From contig CAZJYH010000001.1 of assembly GCA_964549365.1 (NCBI GenBank), positions 1-25,844 of the forward strand: DNA of 25,844 bases, written 5' to 3'. The position numbers and the translations under genes were made by a program. The DNA is from an uncultured Alphaproteobacteria bacterium (GTDB taxonomy: Bacteria; Bacteroidota; Ignavibacteria; OLB7). This document shows, one piece after another, positions 495 through 23,336 of this stretch (the first letter of the stretch is position 1; the number at the start of each line of letters is the position of its first letter). The notes beneath the pieces were generated by a model. It was given only the letters and a program-made list of their open reading frames with translations. It was not told the DNA's origin and did not search any database.

Positions 495-1998
495 TTTCCC
501 TCACGGACTGCGCGTGATTGAAGATGTTCCCCGGGTCCCACTCCCGCTTCGCACGCTGGAGCCGCGCGTAGCCTCCCTTGTAGTAGAGATATTCCCAGTT
601 CTCGAGATCGACATCCGGATAATTCACGTAGCAGCCGTCCATCACGCGATCGGGCATCGGGCCGTCGGGGCCGTACATGTCGTTGTAGAAGTCGCGGATC
701 CAGTTCAGGTTCACCGCGTCCTGATGCTTGTAATCCCAGTGCGTGTGGTATTGCAGCTTCATGATGGAGCTGCGCTGCGGAACGGCGGTGGCGGCCGGCT
801 TGACGGCGTTGATCCGCCCGCCGTAGGAGTCCACCTGCAGCAGGGCCAGCGGGTTGTAGTAGTCGGTGGTGAGATGCTTGAAGATGGTCTCGATCTGCCG
901 CCTCGGGAACGGCTTCTTCATGTAGGCGCTCTTGTACTTGCCGCGCTGGTTGGCGCCGGAGCCGTTCAGCGTCTGCGTGGCCTCCAGCCACGGCATGGTC
1001 GTCGGCGTGGTGGTCGGCACCACCACGTGATGCGATCCCGCGATGACGCGCTGCGGCACGTGGGCAAGGCCGTCCACCTTCACCGCCGCAAGGAATGCAT
1101 GGAGCGGCCCGGCTTCGGCGCCGACGTACTGCGCGGTGATGCTGACCTGCCCGGCCGCCTTGTTGGTCAGATGCAGCATCGCGAAGAGGCCGTCGTACTC
1201 GGAGCCCGGCGCGGAGTGCGCCTCCATGAACGCGCCGTAGTTCTGCACGATCCGATCGAACTCATCGAAGCCGAGCCCCTGCCAGTCCCACGCGATCGTG
1301 GCAAGATGCGCCATCGACGGCGCGGCCGGAGGATCGGCGAAGAAGTATCGCGTCACGATCCCGAAGTTCCCGCCGCCGCCCCCGGTATGCGCCCAGAAGA
1401 GATCCTGTTCACGACGGCTCGTCGACTCGCGCCCGACAACGACGACCTCGGCACGCCGCGCCTCGTTCACCACGATGGCCTCCACGGCGGTGAGATGGTC
1501 CACCGTCAGGCCATGCAGCCGCGAGAGCAGACCGTAGCCGCCGCCGATGATGTGGCCGCCCGCGCCGACGGAGTAGCAGGAGCCCGCGGGGATCGCCACG
1601 CCGTATTCCTTGTAGAGCTGCGTGTAGACGTTCCAGAGGGTGCATCCTCCCTCGATGCAGAAGGCATCGCGCGCGCGGTCCAGGTACACGGCGTTCATCG
1701 GCGAGAGATCGATGATGACGCCGCCGACGTTGCCGCTGACGAAGTCCTCGTAGCAATGGCCGCCGCCGCGCACGGTGATCCGCAGACCCTTGTCCAGCGC
1801 CTTCTGCACGGCGGCGCGCACCTGCGCGGTATCGCCGCACAACTCCACGTAGCGCGGCCTGCCGGTGAAGCGGCGGTTGAAGCCCTGCACCAGCGTGCCG
1901 TAGCGCGGATCGGTCTTGCCGACGGTCCCGCCCCGGAATGTGTTACACTCCTCCGGCGACTCGTCGTTGATTCTATCGTTGGATGCGTTGTTGCTCAT
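475..1998 (-). CDS. FAD-binding oxidoreductase, berberine-bridge-enzyme (BBE)/VAO-PCMH family
   Basis: RGGGHCYEDF flavinylation motif, AGSCYSVGAGGHIIGGGYG, GGGGGNFGIVT, and C-terminal BBE domain YVNYPD...YARLQRAKREWDPGNIFNHAQSV. Start set at MSNN (1998); the ORF is open to 2079. Confidence 0.9.
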   Translation of the reverse strand: MSNNASNDRINDESPEECNTFRGGTVGKTDPRYGTLVQGFNRRFTGRPRYVELCGDTAQVRAAVQKALDKGLRITVRGGGHCYEDFVSGNVGGVIIDLSPMNAVYLDRARDAFCIEGGCTLWNVYTQLYKEYGVAIPAGSCYSVGAGGHIIGGGYGLLSRLHGLTVDHLTAVEAIVVNEARRAEVVVVGRESTSRREQDLFWAHTGGGGGNFGIVTRYFFADPPAAPSMAHLATIAWDWQGLGFDEFDRIVQNYGAFMEAHSAPGSEYDGLFAMLHLTNKAAGQVSITAQYVGAEAGPLHAFLAAVKVDGLAHVPQRVIAGSHHVVVPTTTPTTMPWLEATQTLNGSGANQRGKYKSAYMKKPFPRRQIETIFKHLTTDYYNPLALLQVDSYGGRINAVKPAATAVPQRSSIMKLQYHTHWDYKHQDAVNLNWIRDFYNDMYGPDGPMPDRVMDGCYVNYPDVDLENWEYLYYKGGYARLQRAKREWDPGNIFNHAQSVRESMNYEV

Positions 1999-2240
1999 CG
2001 TCGTTCTGTTCGGGAATGTGGTTGCGAGGGGACAATGGAGGGTGGCATCAAGATACGGCGCCCGGAATAATCCCGACACATCGCAGCAGGATATCCCCTC
2101 GACCGGATATGCTCTGGATTAGACCATTGCCCGACGCATCCCCCGTTGCGTATACTGTGCCCGCCGCGATTTCCGCCGCACATGTCGCACACCTCGGCGC
2201 AGTTCGTTGGGATCACTCCATTCGCCAAGCCGATCGCATC

Positions 2241-5200
2241 ATGAAATGTATCGCTACTCTCCTGCTATTTGCAGCAGCGCTCTCCGCGGTCACCGCATTC
2301 GCCCAGCCGCGTTCGAACGACTCAACGTCGTATGTATTTCGCTGTGCCACCGATGAGGCGCTGCGCGCGCGCCGCCTGGCCGATCCCGCATTGAGCCGGC
2401 GCATGGAAGCGAACGACCGCCTCCTCTACACGTTGATATCCGCGGCGATGGCGGAGCGGCACGACATGCGCGCGCCGCATGCCGACGTGGTCTACACGAT
2501 CCCCGTGGTGATCCACATCGTGCACAACGGCGGCGCCGAGAACATCACCGATGCGCAGGTGCAGCAGGGGCTGCGCGACATGAACGACGCGTTCCGCAAT
2601 GTGGGCGTCTACGATCCGGCCACGGGTGTCGACGTGGAGATCGCGTTCTGCCTTGCCAAACAGGATCCCGACGGCAAGCCGACCAGCGGCATCACGCGCA
2701 CGCAGTCGCCGTTGACGAATCTGGCGATGGAGTCGGACGACATCCCGTTGAAGGATCTGACCCGGTGGAACCCTGAGCACTACCTCAACATCTGGCTGGT
2801 GCGCGAGATCACGTCGACATCGTCGGGGCCCGGCGTTGCCGGCTACGCATATCTCCCGGCGTCGCACGGCAGGCCGGAGGACGGCATCGTGGGCGAGGCG
2901 AGGTGGTTCGGCTCCTCCCCTGCCAACACCGCCATCCTGGTGCACGAGGCGGGGCACTACTTCGGACTGTACCACACGTTTCAGGGAGGCTGCACCAACA
3001 ACGACTGCCTGATCGACGGCGACGCGGTCTGCGACACGCCGCCGGACCAATCGGTGGCCGAGGTGTCGTGCCGGGGACAGGCCAATTCCTGCAGCAGCGA
3101 TCCGGACGATCCCTCACCGAAGAATCCGTTCCGCTCCCCCGCGCTCGGCGGCCTGGGCGACGTCCCCGATCTCCACACCGACTACATGGACTACGGCAAC
3201 CCCGCATGTTTCTCGGTGTTCACCGCGGGCCAACGCGACCGCATGCGTGCGGTATTGACATCGATCCGCTCCAGCCTCCTCGCCTCGCACGGCTGCACCT
3301 CACCCTGCCCGAACCCCTTCACGCCCTCGTTCACCGTTCCGCCGGGGACGATCTATGTGGGGAGCCCGGTCTCCTTCACGAACACCACGAGCGGCGCGAA
3401 CAGCTTCACCTGGAGCGTGGACGGCACGACCTTCTCCACGGCCGCGAGCCCGACCTACACCTTCACGAGCGCCGGCAGGCATGTGGTCACGCTGACGGCG
3501 GCAAGCGACGATCCGCTCTGCACGTTCACGACGTCGGATACGATCGACGTTCGCTGCCGCACCGTCGCGGGTTTCACGATCTCGTCGGCGACCGTGAAGC
3601 CGGGGGAGAGCATATCGGCGACGAGCACCTCCACGAACGCCGACTCGTACGTGTGGCTGGTGGACGGCGTGCAGGTTTCCGTGGGGCCGGATCTGACGAC
3701 CACCTTCCCGAGCGAGGGAGCCGTGCGCATCACGTTGATCGCTCAGGGACCGGATTGCAGCGACACGGCAACCCGCGTGCTGCAGGTGCGGCAATGCGGC
3801 ACCGACAAACACGGCAACGTCTGGTACTTCGGGTTCGGCGGCAACGGCCTGAACTTCAACACCCCGGACAGCCGCGGCTATCCGGCGCCGATCAGCGGCG
3901 GCGGCGGGAGCAACCGCGAAGGGTTCGCGTCGATATGCGATCAGAACGGCGCCGTCATGTTCTACACGGACGGACGAACCATCTACGATGGGCGGCATCG
4001 GAGCATGTACAATACCCTGAACGGCGGCGTGTGGGCCGCACAGGTGCTGATCGTTCCGATGCCCGGCAATCCCGATCTCTACTATGTCTTCAGCGTCAAC
4101 AACTGGACCGATACGCAAGCGGAACTGCGGTACACGGTGGTCGACATGCGGCTCAACGGCGGCCGCGGCGAAGTGACGCAGGGGAACGTGACGATTCACT
4201 CCAACGCAGCCGAATGCGTGGTCGGGGCATATCATGCCAACTGCAAGGACGTGTGGATCGTGACCCATGAGAAGGGGACCAACAACTACGTTGCCTTCCT
4301 GTTGACGTCGAGCGGAATCTCGACGCAGCCGGTGATCTCGTCGGTCGGCAGCGACCTGGTGGGAGCCAACCGGTACGGCTCGCTCCGGTTCTCTCAGGAC
4401 ACACGATGGTTGTGCCGAGCGCTCGGCGGAGGAAGCGCCGCCTCGCCGACCCTGGAGTTGAACGAGTTCGACAATGCCACGGGGAAGGTCTCGAACGCGA
4501 TGCCGATCGCCGACGATACGCTCCTCCCCTCCCCCTTCTCCGCGGAGTTCTCTCCGAACGGACGCTATCTCTACACGGCGAACTTCACCAAGGGCCCGAT
4601 CTATCAATTCGATCTACAGGCGGCCTCGGGGGGCGGCGCGGCAATCCTGGCATCGCGCGTGCCGGTCGGCACCTACGACGGCGGGTGTTTCGTTCTGGGA
4701 CCGGACGGCCGTATCTACATCTCGCAGTACAACACGGGAGGCCTGGCCGTCATCGACTATCCCAATCTCCCGGGGACCGCATGCCACGTCGCAACGCCGC
4801 CGATCCCGTATCCGGGCCAGAGCAGTCTGGGCCTGCAGAACCTGGTGGCCGGCATGTACGGCCGCGGCATATCGCTGCGCGCTGCGGCGACCGCCTGCGC
4901 CGGGGCCGATGTGAAGGTGACGGCGGCGTTCGTCGGCTGCGAGGTCAGCTCCGTGCGCTGGAGAGCGATCGGGCCGGGAACCATCACCGCAAGCGACGAC
5001 AAGAGCGCCACACTCCGCCTGGATGATACCGGCATCGTGCGCGTGGTGGTGGAACGCACCGATGCGTGCACGACGACGCTGGATTCGATCGACGTGCGCG
5101 CCACACCGGGCGTGGCCACAAACCTCGGCCCCGACACCGCGCTCTGTTCGATCGACTCGCTGACGCTCGACGCGGGGGCCGGCTTCGCCTCGTATAGCTG

Positions 5201-7046
5201 GCAGGATGGATCGACACGGCAACGCTTCACGGCCCGCGCGCCGGGCACCTACTGGGTGGAGGCCCGCACGCCCGAGGGATGCGTTGCGCGCGACACGATT
5301 GTCGTCGGCCCCGACGCGGGAAGCCCGTCGGTGAACCTCGGCGCCGACACCACGCTCTGCGGCGGCGCGGTGCTGACGCTCGATGCGGGGCCGGGCGCAC
5401 GCGCGTATCGCTGGCAGGATGGTTCGGCGCAGCGGCAGTTCACCGCGTTCGGGCCCGGCACATACTGGGTGACGATCACCGACGCCTGCGGACGGGCCGC
5501 GACCGACACGATCGTGGTGGCGGCGACCGCGACGACGCCTCTGCTCGGCGCCGACACGACGCTCTGCGACGGCAACATCGTCACGCTGGCTGCGCCCCCC
5601 GGGAAGCCGCGCTATCTCTGGTCGACAGGGGAAACGACCGATCGCATCACGGCCTCGGCAGCGGGAACGTACTGGGTGGATGTGCAGGAGCCGAACGGAT
5701 GCGTGACGCGCGACAGCATCGAGGTCACACTCTCATCCACGGCTTCGACATCGCTGGGACCGGACACGGTGCTGTGTCCCGGCACGACGGTGACGCTTGC
5801 GCCGAGCACGACGGGCGCATCGTATCGATGGTCGACGGGGGCGACATCGCCGAGCATATCGGTGGGGAGCGCGGGAGAATACTGGCTGGAACTGTGGGAT
5901 GCCGCCGGCTGCGTCGCGCGCGATACGGTACGCGTGGAGGTCGACCGCCAACTGCTGGATCTGAGCCTCGGCACGGACACGACGCTCTGCGGACGTTCGC
6001 CGCTGCTGCTGGATGCCGGGGCGGGCTTCGCCGGATACCGATGGAGCGACGGCTCGGCCGGGCGTACGTTGACCGCGACGCAGCCGGGCCGGTACTGGGT
6101 GGAGGTGAACGGACGATGCGGAACGGCGCGCGATACGATCGACATACGGCAGGGCGCGCCGCCGATCGATCTCGGACCCGACACGCTCGTGTGTGCACGC
6201 GACGCGATCACGTTGACGGCCCCGGAAGGGGGAACCTCGTATCGGTGGTCGACGGGCGAGACGACGCGCGATATCCGTGCCGCCGATTCCGGTGATTACT
6301 GGGTGGAGATGTGGAAGGATGGATGCGTGCTCCGCGACACGGTGCACGTGGCCACCTACCCCGGCGCGACGCTCACGGCATCGGTCGCGGAGATCGGCCC
6401 GTCGACCGACGTTGTGCCGGGCGACACGCTGGTCGTGACGCTGCGGCTGGCCTCATCCCCCGCCCGCGGTGCGATCGTGGGGGCGGCATACCGCGCCGTG
6501 CTGCGCTTCGACAGGACGATGCTCTTCCCCATCGCCCCGACACCGAGGGGGCCGATCGACGGAACCGACCGCGTGATCACGTTGAGCGGAACGGTGCCGA
6601 ACTCGGACACGAGGGCGCTGCTGCCGTTCCGCGGACTGTTCGGCCGTGATGCGGGCGTCGACGTGCGCATCGATTCGTTCGAGATCGCCGACGACTGCAT
6701 TGCCGGCATCATCCGCCTTCCCGGGCATGCCACGATCGTCGCGTGCGGCGCGGGGCGAGGGCTGTTGACGATCGAGCTGACCGATCGGGCGCTGTTGAAG
6801 GTCGCGAGCGAGGTGGTGGAGGGGAGGCCGCTGGTGGTCACGTACCGAACCGTGGAGATCGGGCCGACGCAGCTGGTGCTCACCGATGCGCGCGGCGCGA
6901 TCGTCCGACGCCTGTACGACGGCGGGGCCGAGGTCGGATCGTTCACGTTGGAGGTGCCGACCGAGGGAATTCCCTCCGGCGTGTACAGCGTTCAGCTTCG
7001 CACACCCAGCGACCGCAAAAGCGTGCGGGTGCTGGTGACGAAGTAG
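2241..7046 (+). CDS. Secreted M43 (pappalysin/ulilysin-like) zinc metalloprotease with PKD-like domains, propeller-like region, six Ig-like repeats and probable T9SS-type C-terminal domain
   Basis: Signal peptide MKCIATLLLFAAALSAVTAFA/Q; pro-peptide RCAT; HEAGHYFGLYH (2943-2975); Met-turn DYMDY (3180-3194); PKD-like FTNTTSGANSFTWSVDG; C-terminal GIPSGVYSVQL...VLVTK. Confidence 0.9.
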   Translation: MKCIATLLLFAAALSAVTAFAQPRSNDSTSYVFRCATDEALRARRLADPALSRRMEANDRLLYTLISAAMAERHDMRAPHADVVYTIPVVIHIVHNGGAENITDAQVQQGLRDMNDAFRNVGVYDPATGVDVEIAFCLAKQDPDGKPTSGITRTQSPLTNLAMESDDIPLKDLTRWNPEHYLNIWLVREITSTSSGPGVAGYAYLPASHGRPEDGIVGEARWFGSSPANTAILVHEAGHYFGLYHTFQGGCTNNDCLIDGDAVCDTPPDQSVAEVSCRGQANSCSSDPDDPSPKNPFRSPALGGLGDVPDLHTDYMDYGNPACFSVFTAGQRDRMRAVLTSIRSSLLASHGCTSPCPNPFTPSFTVPPGTIYVGSPVSFTNTTSGANSFTWSVDGTTFSTAASPTYTFTSAGRHVVTLTAASDDPLCTFTTSDTIDVRCRTVAGFTISSATVKPGESISATSTSTNADSYVWLVDGVQVSVGPDLTTTFPSEGAVRITLIAQGPDCSDTATRVLQVRQCGTDKHGNVWYFGFGGNGLNFNTPDSRGYPAPISGGGGSNREGFASICDQNGAVMFYTDGRTIYDGRHRSMYNTLNGGVWAAQVLIVPMPGNPDLYYVFSVNNWTDTQAELRYTVVDMRLNGGRGEVTQGNVTIHSNAAECVVGAYHANCKDVWIVTHEKGTNNYVAFLLTSSGISTQPVISSVGSDLVGANRYGSLRFSQDTRWLCRALGGGSAASPTLELNEFDNATGKVSNAMPIADDTLLPSPFSAEFSPNGRYLYTANFTKGPIYQFDLQAASGGGAAILASRVPVGTYDGGCFVLGPDGRIYISQYNTGGLAVIDYPNLPGTACHVATPPIPYPGQSSLGLQNLVAGMYGRGISLRAAATACAGADVKVTAAFVGCEVSSVRWRAIGPGTITASDDKSATLRLDDTGIVRVVVERTDACTTTLDSIDVRATPGVATNLGPDTALCSIDSLTLDAGAGFASYSWQDGSTRQRFTARAPGTYWVEARTPEGCVARDTIVVGPDAGSPSVNLGADTTLCGGAVLTLDAGPGARAYRWQDGSAQRQFTAFGPGTYWVTITDACGRAATDTIVVAATATTPLLGADTTLCDGNIVTLAAPPGKPRYLWSTGETTDRITASAAGTYWVDVQEPNGCVTRDSIEVTLSSTASTSLGPDTVLCPGTTVTLAPSTTGASYRWSTGATSPSISVGSAGEYWLELWDAAGCVARDTVRVEVDRQLLDLSLGTDTTLCGRSPLLLDAGAGFAGYRWSDGSAGRTLTATQPGRYWVEVNGRCGTARDTIDIRQGAPPIDLGPDTLVCARDAITLTAPEGGTSYRWSTGETTRDIRAADSGDYWVEMWKDGCVLRDTVHVATYPGATLTASVAEIGPSTDVVPGDTLVVTLRLASSPARGAIVGAAYRAVLRFDRTMLFPIAPTPRGPIDGTDRVITLSGTVPNSDTRALLPFRGLFGRDAGVDVRIDSFEIADDCIAGIIRLPGHATIVACGAGRGLLTIELTDRALLKVASEVVEGRPLVVTYRTVEIGPTQLVLTDARGAIVRRLYDGGAEVGSFTLEVPTEGIPSGVYSVQLRTPSDRKSVRVLVTK
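5121..6350 (+). repeat. Six intragenic ~65-aa Ig-like repeats
   Basis: The unit LGxDTxLC...Y(R/S/L)W(S/Q)(T/D)G...G(T/E/R/D)YWV...C...DT(I/V) occurs six times in the M43 protein translation. Confidence 0.85.
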
Positions 7047-7201: not shown

Positions 7202-9025
7202 TCACCGGTCGCCGACCACCACACGCGCCGCCGCGCGCGCGCCGCCGCCGCCCACGGTCACCACGTACGTGCCGGCCGGCCATCCCGCCGTCGGGATCTC
7301 GGCCACCGTCCGCCCGGTTCCGCTCGGCGCCGTGCGACGCGCAACCTCACGGCCGAGGAGGTCGGAGACGACCACCGTCGTCGCGCGATCGGGGTCCAGT
7401 TCGAACGCCGTGCTCAGCGTGCCGTTGCGCGGCACGGGGTTCGGATACGTCGCAAGACGGCGCGAGGCGGCCGAGCCGTCGAACGTGAGAGTCGCGCCGT
7501 GCGCGGCATCGGGATCCACCGCCGGCTTCGGGTTCAGATAGCAGAGCTGCGATCCCGCGGTGGCCGGGATTCCAAGCACGGGGTAGAACGTCCCGGTGGC
7601 GAACGGATTGTCCGTCACGCTCACGCACTGCTCCACCAGTCCCGTTGCCGGGTACACCGGTGTCGCGGTGCCGCTGTTGCAGCTCATGCCGCCGGCGGTG
7701 TTGGTCTTGATCAGATAGATCTCGCTGAAGGCTCCCGGCGGGATGATGCTCGGGCTGTAGGTCAACCCCGCCACGGCGAAGCCGAAGGTGAAGCCCGGCA
7801 GGCTGTTCGGCGCCTCGGCCACTTCCTCCCCCTGATCCGCGCCGCTGCCGCCGTACACGTTGAACGCCCCGACCGGGGCCAGCGTCCCCTGCGCATACTG
7901 TTGCAGGAAGGCGTCGGTGGCCCCTCCGAGCGGCGCCAGCGACGTGGTCCCGACGACGACCATGTCCCCCGGCGTGCCGACGGCGGGCGCGGTTATCTCG
8001 CGCACCGAGTTGGCCGTGTCGGGGGCCTGGGTGCCGTCGCCGAACGCCGTCCACGCCACGCTCGGCATGCAGACGGCCCCGGCAACGGTCGGGTCGATCA
8101 CCAGCAGGAGCGCGTCGGCGCCGTTCCACGTGGTACCGGCGATCGCCGCCCTGCCGGCCCACACGCCGGACTTCAACTCCTGGATCGAGTTTCCGGCGTC
8201 GCCCATGTCGATGCCGTACTCCGCGGAGGTGATCGTCGCGCCGGTGTTGCCGTCCACGCGCAGCCCCCACACGTCCTCGGTCCCCGGGATGTTGAAACGG
8301 AAGGTGTAGCCGGCGGCGATGACGTCGCCGGGGAAATTGAGGTCCATCTCGTCGAGGCCGCGCAGCTCATCGTCCAGCCCCTGCACGTCGTAGGTGTTCT
8401 CCCAGATCGTCGGTCCCCCACCCCCCGGGATACGGAACATGTACCCGTCCTTGCCGTTCGGCCCGCCGACGTCGGAGACGCCGCTGACGATGAAATCGCC
8501 GGCGAACGTCGTGGACTTGTTGCCGTAGGCCGCCTCGACGACGTCGGTCGCTACCTCGTCCACGCCGGCGGTGCCGTACACGAAGACCCACAACACGTTC
8601 CCCGCCGCGTCGAGCCGCATCACGAAGGCATCCTCGCAGCCGGGGCATATACCGGAGGTCTGCACCTTGCCGACGACGACCAGATCGCCGTTGGCACATT
8701 CCTTGACGTTCGTGGCGACGCTCGGGAAGGATGGATCGATGGCATAGACGTTGTCCCAGAGCGTCAGTCCGGTCGGGTCGGTGCGGATGACGTAGGCATC
8801 CGGCTTCCCGGTCACGAAGTCCGTGCTCCCGCACGTCACGTACTCCCCGTTGGCCGTCTGCACGACGCCGCCGCGTTGATCGTCGGTGGCTCCCGGCGCG
8901 CCGTAGACGTTCAGAAATCGCTGAGCAGACGCCGGCGCGGCCGAGAGCAGCGAGAGCAGAACGGTAGTGAGCACGACGGCCGGGCTCACGCCGCGACGTT
9001 GCAGGTTCGATATGGAACTCTTCAT
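7202..9025 (-). CDS. Secreted ~7-bladed beta-propeller repeat protein with T9SS type A sorting domain
   Basis: RBS aaggaga upstream of MKSSIS; signal peptide ending APASA/Q; seven repeats of (W/F)xxxYG...D...V...GdxvvxGxT...DA(F/Y)xxRxDxxG; C-terminal LATYPNP...VSDLLGREV...GWPAGTYVVTV. Confidence 0.85.
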   Translation of the reverse strand: MKSSISNLQRRGVSPAVVLTTVLLSLLSAAPASAQRFLNVYGAPGATDDQRGGVVQTANGEYVTCGSTDFVTGKPDAYVIRTDPTGLTLWDNVYAIDPSFPSVATNVKECANGDLVVVGKVQTSGICPGCEDAFVMRLDAAGNVLWVFVYGTAGVDEVATDVVEAAYGNKSTTFAGDFIVSGVSDVGGPNGKDGYMFRIPGGGGPTIWENTYDVQGLDDELRGLDEMDLNFPGDVIAAGYTFRFNIPGTEDVWGLRVDGNTGATITSAEYGIDMGDAGNSIQELKSGVWAGRAAIAGTTWNGADALLLVIDPTVAGAVCMPSVAWTAFGDGTQAPDTANSVREITAPAVGTPGDMVVVGTTSLAPLGGATDAFLQQYAQGTLAPVGAFNVYGGSGADQGEEVAEAPNSLPGFTFGFAVAGLTYSPSIIPPGAFSEIYLIKTNTAGGMSCNSGTATPVYPATGLVEQCVSVTDNPFATGTFYPVLGIPATAGSQLCYLNPKPAVDPDAAHGATLTFDGSAASRRLATYPNPVPRNGTLSTAFELDPDRATTVVVSDLLGREVARRTAPSGTGRTVAEIPTAGWPAGTYVVTVGGGGARAAARVVVGDR

Positions 9026-9208
9026 GGTATCTCTCCTTGTGTTGGATTGGATATAACGGACCACGCGGCGCGCACGCCCGCGCCGCATGGGCCTGCCGAC
9101 GCGTACGTTCAGGAGTCTCCTCGCACCGTGTCCGCGCCGGTGCGTGCACATGGGGATAAAATCGAATGTTGGATGTGTGGAGGGTCCGCATGGCTCGGAT
9201 GGATAAGG

Positions 9209-9237
9209 GGATGGTGCGCCGCATGGACGCACCATCC
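9209..9237 (-). terminator. Hairpin downstream of the Cys-rich gene, possible terminator/attenuator
   Basis: ggatggtgcg(9209-9218)/cgcaccatcc(9228-9237) is a 10-bp perfect inverted repeat, 27 nt past the stop at 9265. Confidence 0.55.
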
Positions 9238-9264: not shown

Positions 9265-9717
9265 CTACGGCCGGCATGGCGTGGGCGGCGGCACGGCCGT
9301 CGGGACGATGTTGATCGTGCAGGTCAGGTCGTCGAACAGGACGTCGCAGCAACATCCCGGCGCAAGCGTGACGTTCGGCGCGAACCACGCCGGCGGCGGC
9401 GCGATGTTCGGTTGGAAGCCATAGAAGCAGCACCCGTTCCTGATGCCAACAACCGGGGCTCCGGGAGTGACCGCCGCGAAGGCGACGCCGCCGGCCGGCA
9501 CGCCCACACAGGTGACGTTCCCGTTCCCGTTGCCGAGATCGACGATACAGATGTTGATGAAGCACCCTGTCAGGTTGTTCACCGTCAACGGGTTGGCGGC
9601 GCATGGGGCGCCCTGTGCGCGTACGGCGGTGCTCAGGCCAAGGAACGCAACTGCCGACACCATGCAGATCGTACCGACCCGCACGGCGCGTGAGAGAAGT
9701 AGTCGCGTGAAACGCAT
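9265..9717 (-). CDS. Small secreted hydrophobic Cys-rich protein of unknown function
   Basis: AGGAG RBS 8 nt upstream of ATG 9717; signal peptide ending AVRA/Q; 116-aa mature part with 11 Cys; a hairpin follows the stop. Confidence 0.8.
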   Translation of the reverse strand: MRFTRLLLSRAVRVGTICMVSAVAFLGLSTAVRAQGAPCAANPLTVNNLTGCFINICIVDLGNGNGNVTCVGVPAGGVAFAAVTPGAPVVGIRNGCCFYGFQPNIAPPPAWFAPNVTLAPGCCCDVLFDDLTCTINIVPTAVPPPTPCRP

Positions 9718-10125
9718 GAATCCATCTCCTGATATTGGTGGACGTGTGATTGTTGTAGACGGCATGAAGAATCCCTGCGATCATCGCACGGAATGTGTCG
9801 TCGATCGCTCGATTCACCGGCCGCTCCTGGACCATCTCTCCATCCCGCAAGCCCCGACATGAAGGGAACAACGGGAATCCCACGGCAGTAAGAGCATTAT
9901 GGCGGCCATTTGTGGACTTCTCGAATGCAAACCAAATTGAGAGCCGGTCTCCGATGACCTTACCGATGCAGTGGTGACATCGACGCGGCGGCATGTATCG
10001 GTCATCGACATCGCGCGGCGGCAACCGCTCATCGACCGATCGACTGATACCGGACCGTCGCAAGGGCCGCGGTTCCGATGACGGCGATATTATCCGCGCA
10101 GCCGTACGGCACGATCCGTGTCCGC

Positions 10126-10794
10126 TCAGGCGCGCGGCCGATGCCGGAACCGACCGCGCACACGTTGGAACAACGCGACGCGATCGATCGGGACGGCGTA
10201 CAGAAACGCGAGAGCGATATTGAGCAGCATGCTGAGCCAGGCATCGAAGTAGGCGGTGATCACGGCCGGCGTGTACATCACCGGGCCGAAGGAGAACTGC
10301 GCCGGCACCTCACGCGGGCTCGGGCGCTCGGCCTCGGGTTCGCACATCAGGTTGCCCCGGCGCGCGTGGAGCCAGAGCATGTTGAAGCAGAGCGACAGGA
10401 CGACGAAGAGCCCGTTGTAGAGCATCGCGGCCGGACGCTCGTCGGGTCGGCCGATGAACTTCGCGACGATGGCGGTGGGGAACGGCACGATCGACACGCC
10501 GAGCAACAGCAGCCCGTTGATCACCAGCAGCCGCTGATCGCTCCGGCGGATCGTGGTGAACAGCTTGTGATGGTTCATCCAGATCACGCCGATCGTGACG
10601 AAGCTGGCAAGGAAGGCCAGATACGACGGCCAGAGCTTCAGCAGCTCGGCCCCGAGATCTCCGTCGCGAACGTCCGAAGGAAGCCGTAACTCGAGCACGA
10701 GCAGCGTGATGGCGATCGCGAAGACGCCGTCGGAGAAGGCCTCCACGCGCGCGGTCTCGTTGGGGAGTGCCCCCGGTTCTCTCTCCGATCCCAT
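10126..10794 (-). CDS. TMEM175-family (DUF1211) potassium channel
   Basis: RVEAFSDGVFAIAITLLVLE signature, YLAFLASFVTIGVIWMNHH, multiple hydrophobic helices; gagga RBS before MGSE. Confidence 0.9.
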   Translation of the reverse strand: MGSEREPGALPNETARVEAFSDGVFAIAITLLVLELRLPSDVRDGDLGAELLKLWPSYLAFLASFVTIGVIWMNHHKLFTTIRRSDQRLLVINGLLLLGVSIVPFPTAIVAKFIGRPDERPAAMLYNGLFVVLSLCFNMLWLHARRGNLMCEPEAERPSPREVPAQFSFGPVMYTPAVITAYFDAWLSMLLNIALAFLYAVPIDRVALFQRVRGRFRHRPRA

Positions 10795-10885
10795 GAAAAT
10801 CCTCATCCATTGATGAAGCGGTCCGTATCGTCGCCGCCGCGAATATAATGCGGCGCCGAAGGCATCGGGCTTCACGACACATCCA

Positions 10886-11992
10886 ATGCCGACACGCCCC
10901 GATCATGAAGCACCTCGACCGCCCGGCCGCAGCGACGCGGGCGGCACGCGCGATCCCTCCGGCGAACACGCCCGCGTCGAGCGCGCGCGGGCGCTGGTGA
11001 TGCGATATGGCTGGAACGCCACCGCCTATCAGATCATCAACCCCGGCATCGAGCACTGGTTCTCGCGTTCGGGGGATGCGGTGGTGGGATTCGTGCGCCG
11101 GCACGGTGTGCGCGTGGTGGCCGGAGCGCCCGCCTGCGATCGCGAACGCCTGGCGGACGTGGTGGCCGAGTTCGAGCGCGACGCCCGCGCGAACGGGGAC
11201 CGCATCTGCTACTTCGGCGCCGAGGCGCGGCTCGAAGGGCACGTGCACGGCAACGCGGCGTACGCCTCGGTGCTGCTCGGGGCGCAGCCGGTGTGGCATC
11301 CGCTTTCCTGGAGCGGCATCGTCGCGCGCCACTCCTCGGTCCGCGCGCAACTGAACCGCGCGCGCAACAAGGGGGTGTTGGTGCACGAATGGCCTGCGGC
11401 CGTTGCCGCCCACGATCCCAGGCTGCGCGCGGTGCTCGCCGAATGGCTTTCGACGCGCGGCCTGCCGCCGCTCCACTTCCTGGTGGAGCCGCGGGCGCTG
11501 GACCGCCCGTTCGACCGGCGCGCCTTCGTTGCGACGCAGCAGGGTGCGGTGATCGGCTTCCTGGTGGCCTCCCCCATTCCGACCCGCAACGGCTGGCTTG
11601 TGGAGCAGAACGTGCGCGGAACGGCCGCACCGAACGGCACGGCGGAGCTGATGATCGATACCGCCGTGCGCGCCGTTGCCGCCGAGGGGGCGCAGTACAT
11701 CACGCTCGGCCTGGCGCCGCTCTCACGCCGCATGCAGACCGCGTCGCGCGACAACCCGTTGTGGCTGCGCGCGGTGCTCGGCGGCGTGCGCGCGCTCGGA
11801 CGGCGGTTCTACAACTTCGACGGACTCGATGCGTTCAAGTCCAAGTTCCGCCCCGACGACTGGGAGCCGGTGTACGCGATCGCCTCGGCGCGCAGCTTCC
11901 GTCCCGGCATGCTCTACGCCATCGCCGAAGCGTTCGCCGGCGAATCGCCGCCGGCAGCGGTCGCTCGCGGCATCATGCGCGGCCGGCGCTGA
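10886..11992 (+). CDS. Stand-alone DUF2156 / MprF-LPG synthase C-terminal aminoacyl-transferase domain protein
   Basis: FYNFDGLDAFKSKFRPDDWEPVY, RGTAAPNGTAELMI, ITLGLAPLS, VRVVAGAPAC. Start is 10886 or 11000. Confidence 0.8.
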   Translation: MPTRPDHEAPRPPGRSDAGGTRDPSGEHARVERARALVMRYGWNATAYQIINPGIEHWFSRSGDAVVGFVRRHGVRVVAGAPACDRERLADVVAEFERDARANGDRICYFGAEARLEGHVHGNAAYASVLLGAQPVWHPLSWSGIVARHSSVRAQLNRARNKGVLVHEWPAAVAAHDPRLRAVLAEWLSTRGLPPLHFLVEPRALDRPFDRRAFVATQQGAVIGFLVASPIPTRNGWLVEQNVRGTAAPNGTAELMIDTAVRAVAAEGAQYITLGLAPLSRRMQTASRDNPLWLRAVLGGVRALGRRFYNFDGLDAFKSKFRPDDWEPVYAIASARSFRPGMLYAIAEAFAGESPPAAVARGIMRGRR

Positions 11993-20638: not shown

Positions 20639-21018
20639 TGCAGGACATGCTGCTCCCGGATCTTCCCGGCGGCCACCCGTTTTCGAGCGCGGTGGCCGCC
20701 GCTCGTTTTGAGCTGGAGGCCGCCCGACGCGCGGCTCTTGACGGCAACCACGGCAAGGCCCGCGTCTGCTCGCGGCGCGCGGTGGCGGCATTTTTGCAGG
20801 GGGTCGCCGGGCATCTTCCCTTCGATGCCGGAACCCACGCCCCGGCCAACCTGCGCGCGGTTATGGGGTACGAGGCACTGCCGCAATCGATACGCGACGC
20901 AGCCGAACGCCTGAGCGGCGGCGCGCGCAGCATCGTTGCAGGCACGGCCTACTCCGTCGATCCCGTCGCCGATGCGCTGCTGGTGATCCATCACTTTCTC
21001 GCGGCCGGGGCTCATTGA
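20638..21018 (+). CDS. 126-aa helical hypothetical protein, possibly HEPN-like
   Basis: ATG overlaps the ilvE stop (TAATG). Amphipathic helices ARFELEAARRAALDGNHGKARVCSRRAVAAFL and DPVADALLVIHHF. Confidence 0.65.
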   Translation: MQDMLLPDLPGGHPFSSAVAAARFELEAARRAALDGNHGKARVCSRRAVAAFLQGVAGHLPFDAGTHAPANLRAVMGYEALPQSIRDAAERLSGGARSIVAGTAYSVDPVADALLVIHHFLAAGAH

Positions 21019-21227
21019 TCGCTCTCGGCGGAGCCGCACCCCGGGATCCCACCCCAACATTCGCACGACTGGTTCGTTTCCCCCTCGTTCCCCTGTTTGC
21101 CGCAAAGCACGCCGCGCCGCCCGTTCGGCCGTTATCCCGACCACAATGGGAGTTGTTGCGCGGAGCGGTGTTGTGTAGTTTTGATGCAATTCTCAAGATC
21201 GTTCATTTCACCCTCAGCTATACGGCC

Positions 21228-23336
21228 ATGCTTCAACGCATTCGCTCACTGTGGTACATCCCGGCCCTCCTGCTGCTTCTGGCAAGCGGGACGGCGACGT
21301 CTCAGGTCAACGACAAGGTCACGTGGAAGGTGCTGACCCCCACGGTGAAAGGGGCACCGGGAAAGGTGGTGGAAGTCAAATTCCAGGCCGCGATTGCCAC
21401 GGGCTGGCATATGTACACCACGAAGCGTTATCCGGACAGCGTTGCGGGTCCGTTGCCGACGGAGGTGACCGCCGGCGAAAAGAGCATCCTGACGCTTGGG
21501 GGGCGTTTGAAGGGACCACGGCCGATCCGCCACGTCGATGAGAACTTCGACAATCTGGAGACGGAGTATTGGGAGGGAACGGTCACGTTCACAGTCCCGG
21601 TCAAGATATCGGCGAAAGCGAAGGCGGGCGTCCAGGAAGGCTGGGTGAATCTGTACTTCCAAACGTGCAACGACACACAGTGCTATCCCGGAACCGATAA
21701 GAAGCTCACGTTCAGCATCGACATATCGGACAGCACGATGTCCGCGAACGGCGGCGACACCACCGGGATCGCCACGGGCGACACCGCCACGACGGCGAAC
21801 GCGACGCCGACGGATACGGCCTCGATCGCATCGAAGGGAACCGACACGGCGGCGACCCCGCACACCGTGAGCGCTCAGACCACGCAGCCCCCCCCGAACA
21901 AAGCATCGGTGGGCGCGGCATCGGAGATCGACACGCTTCTGGCCGCTGGGTTCTGGGCCTTCCTGCTGAAGGCGCTCATCGCCGGCGCGATCGCGTTGCT
22001 GACACCGTGTGTCTATCCGATGATCCCGATCACGGTATCGTTCTTTACGAAACGCGAGCAGAACTCGAAGGCGCGTGTGATGCGGGATGCGCTTCTGTTC
22101 GCCGTCGGCATCATCTTCACGTTCACCGGACTCGGCTTCATCATCACCGCGCTTACCAGTGCATCGGGGGTGCAGGATTTCGCGACCAATCCCTACGTGA
22201 ACATTCTGATGGCACTGACATTCACAGCGCTGGCCCTCAGCCTTTTCGGGCTGTTCGAGATTCAGGTGCCTACCGGCATCCTCAACAAGCTGAACCGCAA
22301 GGCATCCGGCGACGGCGCGGGCGCGATCGTGATCATGGGCCTCATCTTCTCGCTCACATCGTTCGCATGCACGGTTCCCTTCGTGGCGACCATCTTCTCG
22401 AACATCGACAGACTTCCGTGGTATTGGCCCATCGCGGGAACATCGGCGTTCGCCGCGGTCTTCGCCCTGCCGTTCTTCCTGCTGGCGATGTTCCCGTCGT
22501 TCCTGAAGTCGCTGCCACGATCCGGCTCCTGGCTGAACGCCATCAAGGTGGTGATGGGCTTCGTCGAGATCGGGTTCGCCGTGAAGTTCATCGCCGGCAC
22601 CGACATGGTGTGGGAGTGGAACATCTTCACGCGCGAGGTCTGCATCGCCATCTGGATTGCCGTCACGACGCTGGCCTCGTTCTACCTTCTGGGATGGTTC
22701 CAGATGCCGCACGATACGCCGACGGAGAAGGTGGGGCCGATCCGCGTCATGTTCGCCACCGCGTTCCTCGCGGCAGGCCTCTGGCTTCTGACCGGGCTGT
22801 TCGGCGGCAACATCGGCGAGCTGGAGGCTCACATCCCTCCGCCTCGTGAGGGCATGCAAACCGCCTCGGGGATGGGCTCGCGCGGCAGCAACTCCTCCGA
22901 GCCGAAGCAAACAACCGGTGAAGTTGCGGCAGCCCAGAACGGTGAGGGAGAGTGGATGCAGGACAACTACGAGGCCGCGCTCGCGCTTGCAAAGAAGTCG
23001 GGCCGTCCGATCTTCATCGACTTCACCGGCTACTTCTGCACCAACTGTCGTTGGATGGAACGCAATATGTTCCCGAAGAAGGATGTGGCGGAATTGATGC
23101 GGAAGTACGTGCTGGTCCGCCTGTACACGGACCGCCGCGATGAGATCAACCTGCGCAACCGCAAGATGCAGATGGATCGCCTGAGTACCTTCGCACTGCC
23201 GTACTACGCCATCTACACTCCGGGCGACCAGTTGGTGGCGCACTCATCCTTTACGCGCAGCACCGACGACTTCATCACGTTCCTGAAGACGGGCCTCGCG
23301 CAGAAGACGGCGACGGTGGCCGCCAACTCGCAATAA
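21228..23336 (+). CDS. dsbD: Thiol:disulfide interchange protein DsbD (N-terminal Ig-like, TM and thioredoxin domains)
   Basis: Signal peptide ending TATS/Q; TCNDTQCYP; LLTPCVYPMIP; FACTVPF; LPRSGSWLNAIKVVMGF; FTGYFCTNCRWME. Confidence 0.9.
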   Translation: MLQRIRSLWYIPALLLLLASGTATSQVNDKVTWKVLTPTVKGAPGKVVEVKFQAAIATGWHMYTTKRYPDSVAGPLPTEVTAGEKSILTLGGRLKGPRPIRHVDENFDNLETEYWEGTVTFTVPVKISAKAKAGVQEGWVNLYFQTCNDTQCYPGTDKKLTFSIDISDSTMSANGGDTTGIATGDTATTANATPTDTASIASKGTDTAATPHTVSAQTTQPPPNKASVGAASEIDTLLAAGFWAFLLKALIAGAIALLTPCVYPMIPITVSFFTKREQNSKARVMRDALLFAVGIIFTFTGLGFIITALTSASGVQDFATNPYVNILMALTFTALALSLFGLFEIQVPTGILNKLNRKASGDGAGAIVIMGLIFSLTSFACTVPFVATIFSNIDRLPWYWPIAGTSAFAAVFALPFFLLAMFPSFLKSLPRSGSWLNAIKVVMGFVEIGFAVKFIAGTDMVWEWNIFTREVCIAIWIAVTTLASFYLLGWFQMPHDTPTEKVGPIRVMFATAFLAAGLWLLTGLFGGNIGELEAHIPPPREGMQTASGMGSRGSNSSEPKQTTGEVAAAQNGEGEWMQDNYEAALALAKKSGRPIFIDFTGYFCTNCRWMERNMFPKKDVAELMRKYVLVRLYTDRRDEINLRNRKMQMDRLSTFALPYYAIYTPGDQLVAHSSFTRSTDDFITFLKTGLAQKTATVAANSQ

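Follow-up and report, generated by a model that had tools for sequence, protein, structure and literature searches.

The gene at positions 9265-9717 (minus strand) of the 25,844-nt stretch of DNA analysed here (the window, from the source genome G000) encodes a small secreted protein, P0001, which belongs to a previously undescribed protein family, nearly all members of which occur in a single genus of uncultured soil Bacteroidota. This conclusion is well supported by the distribution of the family and by searches of known families. A second well supported conclusion is that genes of the family share a cis-regulatory signal, and the mature protein is predicted with high confidence to be a compact nine-strand beta-sandwich. 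We propose, with about even confidence, that P0001 is one member of a co-regulated repertoire of stable, non-enzymatic modules, built as disulfide-stapled sandwiches, which act at the cell envelope or at an interface.

A genus-restricted family of cysteine-rich secreted proteins

The P0001 gene is real, because it has orthologs at 54-62% identity (four-way alignment), its paralogs show ratios of nonsynonymous to synonymous substitution (dN/dS) of 0.16-0.84, and the structural model of the mature protein has a predicted local distance difference test score (pLDDT) of 91. Translation of the gene gives a 150-aa Sec precursor, the signal peptide of which has a basic N-terminus followed by a hydrophobic core and a signal peptidase I site, VRA↓Q (before Q35). 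The mature chain of 116 residues comprises 17 Pro, 13 each of Gly, Ala and Val, 11 Cys, 11 Asn, 9 Thr, 7 Ile, 6 Leu, 6 Phe, 4 Asp, 2 Gln, 2 Arg, 1 Tyr and 1 Trp, with no Lys, Glu, Ser, His or Met, and has CC at mature positions 62-63 and CCC at 88-90. With charged residues at 5% and a grand average of hydropathy (GRAVY) of +0.58, the composition is as hydrophobin-like as the preliminary description of this DNA had judged it to be, and the residue counts in that description agree with the translation, as does its report of a strong ribosome-binding site (AGGAG, 8 nt before the ATG). Cys makes up 9.5% of P0001 versus ∼1% in the long open reading frames (ORFs) of the genome, and since this is common to ∼100 paralogs, the composition is far from chance.

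A rule by which signal peptidase I cleavage exposes a Gln (the Q-rule) has been described for the Bacteroidetes (PMC5837995). Taking an A-x-A site with Gln at +1 as its mark, the pattern is present in P0001 as VRA↓Q and in 88 of the 103 complete paralogs as A-x-A↓Q. A plant-type glutaminyl cyclase was looked for and none was found. There is no lipobox ([LVI][ASTVI][GAS]C) at the end of the P0001 signal peptide, where the cleavage context is AVRA↓QG, and the sole Cys within the signal peptide (precursor C18) sits before the hydrophobic core.

We searched the source genome for further members of the family in three ways. A protein search with P0001 gave 17 matches, an iterated profile search of all six-frame ORFs converged at 111 full-length paralogs on 54 contigs, and an independent search with the profile of a family alignment (A2) gave at least 98 matches. 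The assembly is metagenome-derived (5.7 Mb, 1044 contigs, 89% complete) and its fragmentation cuts arrays at contig ends, so that copy counts are lower bounds. The ∼111 copies correspond to ∼2% of the genes of this genome, and many lie in tandem arrays e.g. 10 copies on C303 (the whole contig), 9 on C267, 6 each on C357 and C65, and 5 on C598. Family members are 120-155 aa long and all have a signal peptide; the mature chains (103 complete members) have a median length of 110 aa with 9.6% Cys, Pro and Val at ∼10% each and 9% charged residues. The median GRAVY is +0.40 and the median net charge -2, which places P0001 at the extreme of the family. P0001 aligns over its full length to the A2 profile (E = 4.8e-29) and has the signal peptide, the ∼110-aa mature chain, the six core Cys and the Cys within three residues of the C-terminus that characterize the family, the core motif of which is GCC-x-D-[VI]-x-x-D...C within the six core Cys.

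All seven other genomes of the genus (G001-G007) carry the family, with between 6 and at least 62 copies each by the A2 profile, and copy number between species of the genus therefore ranges from 6 to >98. Among other genera of the same taxonomic family, 5 of 13 genomes had one or two matches and 8 had none; other families of the class gave no match in 20 genomes, and a sample of the phylum (400 genomes from 180 genera) gave no match at E <= 1e-5 among the best 10 candidates per genome. When P0001 alone was used in a HMMER scan of 1.84 billion representative proteins, 20 matches were obtained, all of 132-154 aa, and none of the relatives whose source records were examined bears a name. In Pfam, P0001 had no match at E <= 1 and no known family was assigned to any of 81 members scanned; the closest approach was one of these 81, which matched the Ena subunit family PF13157 at E = 0.018, a family that P0001 itself does not match. 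NCBIfam gave no match for 10 diverse members, the family profile had no match among PDB sequences, and a search of the ESM Atlas returned solely unnamed clusters. The family had not been recognised in the preliminary description either, and these searches bear that out.

Evolution of the family is fast. For a housekeeping aminotransferase encoded in the window, identity to the proteins of G001, G004 and G007 is 75-78%, but for P0001 the best match reaches 64% in G007 and only 41-43% in G001 and G004. The same aminotransferase is 79% identical to that of a soil metagenome-assembled genome labelled Candidatus Kapaibacterium sp., and by this single best match the source organism probably belongs to the Kapabacteria lineage of Bacteroidota. 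The expansion is not recent, because no pair of paralogs exceeds 72% identity, and recent duplication was rejected on the same ground. Positive selection found no support either, since among the 42 closest paralog pairs dN/dS was below one in every pair for which dS could be estimated (dS at least 0.4).

Predicted fold and cysteine pairing

We modeled mature P0001 with AlphaFold2 from an 81-sequence family alignment. The model is all-beta with nine strands, with a mean pLDDT of 91.1 and a predicted template modelling (TM) score of 0.85, and a paralog on contig C290, which is 23% identical to P0001, gave the same nine-strand pattern at a pLDDT of 94.4. Strand positions alternate between conserved hydrophobic residues that face the core and variable Thr, Asn, Val and Ala that face outward, as expected of the core of an ordinary sandwich whose outer surface is uncharged and varies. 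Also conserved in the P0001 subfamily are N14 (in 39 of 40 members), D91, D95 and the aromatics Y65, F67, W77, W78 and Y/F94.

Neither model had a confident structural match. Foldseek searches of the PDB gave best E values of 0.22 (P0001 model) and 0.026 (C290 model) with TM scores of at most 0.59, the best PDB matches of the C290 model being a Vps13 VAB repeat and the VHL beta domain. AlphaFold DB clusters gave 0.065 and 0.026, respectively, and a shape search of the ESM Atlas gave TM ∼0.5 to assorted Ig-like domains. An exhaustive VIA-align comparison with 48,161 chains reached a best Z of 5.7 (P0001) and 6.8 (C290), where a best Z of 7-8 is typical of models that have no clear match. Its top chains were CnaB-type pilin domains, Vps13 VAB, aegerolysins and NttC. 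The CnaB-type domains (PitA, RrgB, Spy0128) and the Vps13 VAB repeats, which are beta-sandwiches of similar size, are the best structural neighbours yet weak ones, with VIA Z of 5.0-6.8 (below the noise level of 7-8), Foldseek query-normalized TM scores of up to 0.59 and identities of 6-12%; the pilins are moreover cross-linked internally by isopeptide bonds and carry sortase signals, both of which are absent from the family. The Legionella type II substrate NttC (PF24268; PDB 6sjt) and the aegerolysins (OlyA, RahU, Cry34Ab1) are, like the family, small stand-alone secreted beta-sandwiches. Language-model features (0.76) and structure (Z 4.2, within noise) pointed to NttC independently of each other, and the aegerolysins, which bind lipids, gave VIA Z of 3.3-5.4 to the family models, also within noise. 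Unlike the family, these proteins are not Cys-rich; there was no HMM (hidden Markov model) match to them, and no type II secretion system was found in the genus. The structure model and fold search that the preliminary description had proposed as checks thus yielded a confident model with no fold match above noise and no characterised family.

The same description had proposed a search for paralogs and for conservation of the Cys spacing. Six Cys (C5, C18, C88, C89, C99 and C114 in mature numbering) are conserved across the family and all six are present in P0001. Outside this core, Cys columns come and go in pairs in the paralog alignment: C23 and C36 co-occur with r = 0.98, a further pair that is missing from P0001 with r = 0.90, and, within the core, C89 and C114 with r = 0.72. 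The number of Cys is even in 80 of the 103 paralogs. Because the Cys are paired in their occurrence and mostly even in number, they are best read as internal disulfide staples and not as a conserved free thiol or a metal site. Co-occurrence suggests C23-C36 and C89-C114 as disulfides, and C5 and C18 presumably pair with C88 and C99. An odd Cys that leaves one thiol free for bonding between subunits had been suggested for P0001; the count of 11 was correct, but the free thiol is not a trait of the family. The eleventh Cys is the third residue of CCC, at which the ortholog P0003 (on Logan contig L039) has CC-V, with 10 Cys in all, and most paralogs have Val.

Directly before the second conserved Cys lies an N-x-T/S sequon (P0001 residues 47-52), which is found at the same column in the family and could represent either a turn in the structure or a site of glycosylation. 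The enrichment of sequons in the family is modest, with 1.05 per protein versus 0.73 in shuffled sequences. Sequons of PglB-type N-glycosylation need an acidic residue at -2, and those of the family lack it. The window also encodes a full-length DsbD homolog (21015-23336, plus strand; DsbD_N, DsbD_TM and thioredoxin-like domains), 11 kb from the P0001 gene, which may serve periplasmic disulfide isomerisation for a Cys-heavy secretome.

A shared promoter-like motif

A k-mer analysis of the DNA upstream of family genes showed enrichment of ATGTCCAA and CTCTTA. A strict search of the source genome for GTCCAA-N(13-20)-CTCTTA found 14 sites, 13 of which have a 17-nt spacer, where base composition leads to an expectation of ∼0.2 sites per spacer length by chance. 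All 14 sites were in family arrays and 12 lay 38-192 nt upstream of a family start codon. With a weight matrix, 39 of 109 family genes (∼36%) scored above the 99th percentile of random windows; there were 57 matrix matches genome-wide, of which 34 precede recognised family genes and several more precede unrecognised Cys-rich secreted ORFs. Upstream of P0001, GTCCAC-N17-CTCTTA (9917-9889) scored 18.9 bits against a 99.9th percentile of 7.9 for the null, and is a variant of the family pattern GTCC[AT]A-N17-[CT]TCTT[AT] in which the sixth base of the first box is C. Both boxes are kept upstream of the ortholog P0003.

The motif was also found ahead of family genes in G001, G003, G004 and G007. 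Strict-pattern sites with the 17-nt spacer numbered 13 in G000, 13 in G001, 10 in G004 and 5 in G007, with 0 each in G002, G003, G005 and G006; in other genera, 31 of 33 genomes had none and the remaining two had one each. A control with the reversed pattern gave 0-4 sites in any genome. As two conserved boxes at a fixed 17-nt spacing have the geometry of a promoter for an alternative sigma factor, we infer that the motif is such a promoter, typically of the extracytoplasmic function (ECF) type. The source genome has ∼50-60 ECF-type sigma genes, with ∼4 near family genes versus ∼3 expected; a dedicated regulator encoded beside the arrays was looked for among them, and there was no candidate and no enrichment.

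Some strong copies of the motif lie elsewhere. One on C706 (about 1680-2320, minus strand) precedes a 214-aa secreted protein with 10 Cys that is not a recognised family member, and one on C70 (1-470, minus strand) precedes a lipoprotein-like ORF cut by the contig end; both genes may be further members of the regulon. Good copies that have no convincing ORF within 400 nt downstream occur on L128 (G004:C22) at 5169, 9074 and 10627, on L129 at 13794 and on L130 at 1243 and 6919, and these may belong to decayed family genes, to long leaders or to transcripts that do not encode protein.

The features of the P0001 gene are collected in Table 1. A Shine-Dalgarno-like site is present in 85 of 101 family genes. 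At positions -40 to -15 of ∼100 family genes in the source genome the frequency of G is 0.14, versus 0.28 for other genes, and this suggests leaders that are unstructured and tuned for high translation; in the 25 nt ahead of the ribosome-binding site, family genes are G-depleted and CA and CAT repeats are abundant. A riboswitch in the long leader of P0001 was considered and rejected, as an Rfam search of the leader matched no family. The hairpin that follows the stop codon has a predicted folding energy of -59.3 kcal/mol (z = -3.6), and none of 200 shuffled sequences was equally stable. It is terminator-like, yet has no clear U-tract and was not called by a simple terminator scan.

Table 1. 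Coordinates in the window of the P0001 gene and of the sequence elements flanking it
Feature	Position	Strand	Basis
Extended hairpin, inner 12-bp stem at 9209-9237, starting 11 nt past the stop codon	9193..9254	-	RNA folding
Stop codon	9265..9267	-	Read from sequence
Mature 116-aa chain, predicted nine-strand beta-sandwich, 11 Cys	9268..9615	-	AlphaFold2 model
Predicted Sec / signal peptidase I signal peptide, residues 1-34, VRA↓Q	9616..9717	-	Sequence
Inferred 5' leader of ∼165 nt, G-poor toward its 3' end	9718..9888	-	Inferred from motif position
Shine-Dalgarno AGGAG, 8 nt 5' of the ATG (ATG at 9717)	9726..9730	-	Sequence
-10-like box CTCTTA, 17 nt downstream of the first box	9889..9894	-	Motif scan
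-35-like box GTCCAC of the bipartite family motif, consensus ATGTCCAAT	9912..9917	-	Motif scan, 18.9 bits

Neighbouring genes, export and possible function

Family genes have heterogeneous neighbours, which include large cargo proteins of the type IX secretion system (T9SS), regulators with tetratricopeptide repeats (TPR) and LuxR or SARP domains, and housekeeping genes, and in the 4 kb around family genes none of the neighbour families showed enrichment. Recurrent neighbours are large TPR proteins whose DNA-binding domains are of the LuxR/GerE or SARP (BTAD) type (C105, C35, C455, C52 and C93; L133 at 4095-6740); these regulators are common genome-wide and are not statistically enriched near the family. 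Within the window, positions 1983-7046 (plus strand) encode a secreted protein of 1687 aa in which PKD domains accompany a metallopeptidase domain of the M43 (pappalysin) type, and the gene for P0003 on L039 adjoins an ortholog of this M43 protein (61% identical). Between the M43 gene and the P0001 gene in the window, positions 7202-9235 (minus strand) hold a 677-aa ORF, the start of which is probably an internal Met near 9025 (MKSS...) with a signal peptide ending ASA↓Q; a longer reading would overlap the hairpin that follows P0001. The 677-aa protein has a weak T9SS tail (E = 1.9e-4), 12 paralogs in the source genome and no other recognisable domain, and it has no similarity to the one redoxin-domain protein near a paralog of P0001.

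On the promoter side, the P0001 gene is flanked by a homolog of TMEM175-type potassium channels (10126-10875, minus strand) and by a stand-alone LPG_synthase_C protein (10886-11992, plus strand), and of these two only the LPG_synthase_C gene is syntenic in G007. The G007 ortholog of P0001 adjoins orthologs of the LPG-synthase-C gene and of a BBE oxidase gene, and lacks both the M43 gene and the 677-aa gene. Homologs of the 677-aa protein lie near family genes in 3 of 12 cases versus 0.7 expected, which becomes 2 of 11 (roughly p = 0.12) when the index case is left out. A module of three genes (Cys-rich protein, propeller and M43 protease) was therefore not supported, as these homologs are not enriched and the G007 ortholog has neither neighbour.

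P0001 had been described as having a Sec signal, no C-terminal sorting domain and no lipobox, with its route beyond the periplasm unexplained, and our searches agree with this. T9SS sorting domains (Por_Secre_tail PF18962, TIGR04183/TIGR04131) had no match in P0001 or in 10 scanned members, and no sorting-domain structure was among the fold matches. The source genome does have the SprA translocon and at least 150 Por_Secre_tail matches, none of which is within a family gene. No secretin was found in six genomes of the genus, namely the source genome and five others that are near-complete, nor was GspG found in the source genome; type II secretion was rejected as an export route on these grounds. 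By default, the protein would end in the periplasm or at a membrane face, unless vesicles or some other route export it.

According to our proposal, signal peptidase I would cleave the Sec signal peptide and expose an N-terminal Gln, and the mature chain would then fold as a compact nine-strand sandwich, in which disulfides made by the periplasmic Dsb system staple both termini and adjacent strands to the core through the conserved cysteines. Transcription would start at the family-specific, ECF-type promoter ∼165 nt upstream of the gene and end at the hairpin past its stop codon. The product would be a non-enzymatic, protease-resistant module with a hydrophobic surface, acting at the envelope interface (in the periplasm or on a face of the membrane) or, once released, extracellularly, and many such modules would be deployed together on a specific signal as a co-regulated, diversified repertoire. 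A non-enzymatic repertoire is suggested because the scaffold is conserved while outward positions vary, copy number differs widely between species and there is no catalytic motif; a stable module that acts at an interface is suggested by the extreme cross-linking together with the hydrophobic, uncharged composition. We slightly favour a role in binding or interaction (defence, antagonism or adhesion) over that of a purely structural coat.

Several points weigh against this proposal. The recognisable motif is present in only about a third of family genes, four species of the genus (G002, G003, G005 and G006) gave no site of the strict form, and instead of a promoter the motif could be a binding site for an activator. 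The dN/dS values below one throughout give no support for diversifying selection, and no conserved partner gene points to a pathway. A hydrophobic-surfaced protein that is free in the periplasm would be unusual, and the surface hydrophobicity and the disulfide geometry are themselves deduced from sequence.

Fungal and oomycete effectors, legume NCR peptides and defensins are Cys-rich mini-proteins of eukaryotes that combine a disulfide scaffold with variable surfaces, tandem arrays and varying copy number. The family resembles these repertoires in its conserved disulfide scaffold, its variable surfaces, its tandem arrays and its large copy-number differences among species, although the eukaryotic families act on a host or symbiont, whereas the present family is found in a free-living soil bacterium and has dN/dS < 1. 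A more far-reaching form of our proposal, which we offer only tentatively and think rather improbable, is that the family forms a sigma-controlled arsenal or coat, composed of over 100 hydrophobic beta-sandwich mini-proteins that are stapled by disulfides and have a fold unseen in solved structures. The proteins would leave through the outer membrane by a route not yet recognised, or in vesicles, and would either be the bacterial equivalent of the Cys-rich effectors and antimicrobials of eukaryotes or sheathe resting cells in the manner of hydrophobins.

The preliminary description had put P0001 forward as a candidate hydrophobin- or chaplin-like surface protein, and a working likeness to these coats, in which surface or membrane-face proteins would self-assemble into an amphipathic or disulfide-linked layer during a sigma-run differentiation or stress programme, is an unlikely alternative. 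The family is small, Sec-exported and rich in predicted disulfides, with 5-9% charged residues and positive hydropathy, and its genes appear to be co-regulated from an ECF-type motif. Fungal hydrophobins (PF01185, PF06766) are likewise secreted proteins of ∼100 aa with several disulfides, few charges, positive hydropathy and multiple copies, and the chaplins and rodlins of Streptomyces are small, Sec-secreted, hydrophobic paralogs. The chaplin and rodlin sheath genes belong to the regulon of the ECF sigma factor BldN (PMC6101532). Actual membership of either family is refuted by HMMs, Cys pattern and fold: the hydrophobin HMMs matched neither P0001 at E <= 1 nor any of the 81 members at E <= 0.1, and the chaplin domain (PF03777) matched none of the 81. 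Hydrophobins have eight Cys in four disulfides (C-CC-C-C-CC-C) versus C-C...CC-C-C plus variable extra pairs in the family, for which a nine-strand sandwich is predicted with no hydrophobin among its fold matches, and the host is a diderm bacterium in which no export route was found. Chaplins form amyloid from a short domain and number ∼10, whereas family members are much larger, Cys-rich and sandwich-folded and number ∼100. A coat would also need a route across the outer membrane, and none was found; it would not obviously need ∼100 highly diverged paralogs with a copy range of 6 to >98; and as its Cys are paired and mostly even in number, the family has no conserved free thiol through which a layer could be cross-linked.

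Periplasmic inhibitors of serralysin-type proteases provide the model for another alternative, in which the proteins would be protective binders that inhibit the cell's own T9SS-bound hydrolases in transit or confer something like immunity against incoming toxins or lytic enzymes. This would suit Sec-only export to the periplasm, a genome with so many T9SS cargo tails, and ECF-type control as part of an envelope-stress response, and the P0001 and P0003 genes both lie near orthologous M43 peptidase genes. We nevertheless consider it decidedly unlikely, since the G007 ortholog has no M43 neighbour, hydrolase genes are absent from family arrays, which reach 10 genes, enrichment was seen for none of the neighbour families (the 677-aa homologs included), and hydrophobic, uncharged surfaces are atypical of soluble periplasmic inhibitors. 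A metal-binding protein was the other alternative in the preliminary description; CC and CCC would then supply thiolate ligands in the manner of metallothioneins or copper-storage proteins, and the high Cys content and adjacent cysteines would suit this. It is very improbable, however, as Sec delivers the protein unfolded to oxidising surroundings, the family gains and loses Cys columns in pairs and has mostly even counts, CCC is reduced to CC in the ortholog and in most paralogs, there is no His or Met, and the confident all-beta model puts the paired Cys at strand ends, where strands and termini can be stapled; a hundred diverged paralogs would also make little sense for storage.

A repertoire of stable, non-enzymatic envelope or interface modules therefore remains our preferred reading of a family that, while unrecognised by databases, takes up ∼2% of the genes of one genome and is held in dozens of copies by related species. 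The family joins a confidently predicted fold that matches nothing known with a promoter signal of its own, and its defined regulon, its small and stable domain and a disulfide map that can be tested all offer handles for experiment. The uncultured soil Bacteroidota of the Kapabacteria lineage, to which its hosts probably belong, are poorly understood, and large expansions of secreted Cys-rich mini-proteins, which in eukaryotes are a hallmark of interaction between organisms, have rarely been described in bacteria. The role of the repertoire could therefore reveal a structure of the envelope, an antagonistic or defensive class of proteins or a hyper-stable scaffold, each of which would be new or useful.

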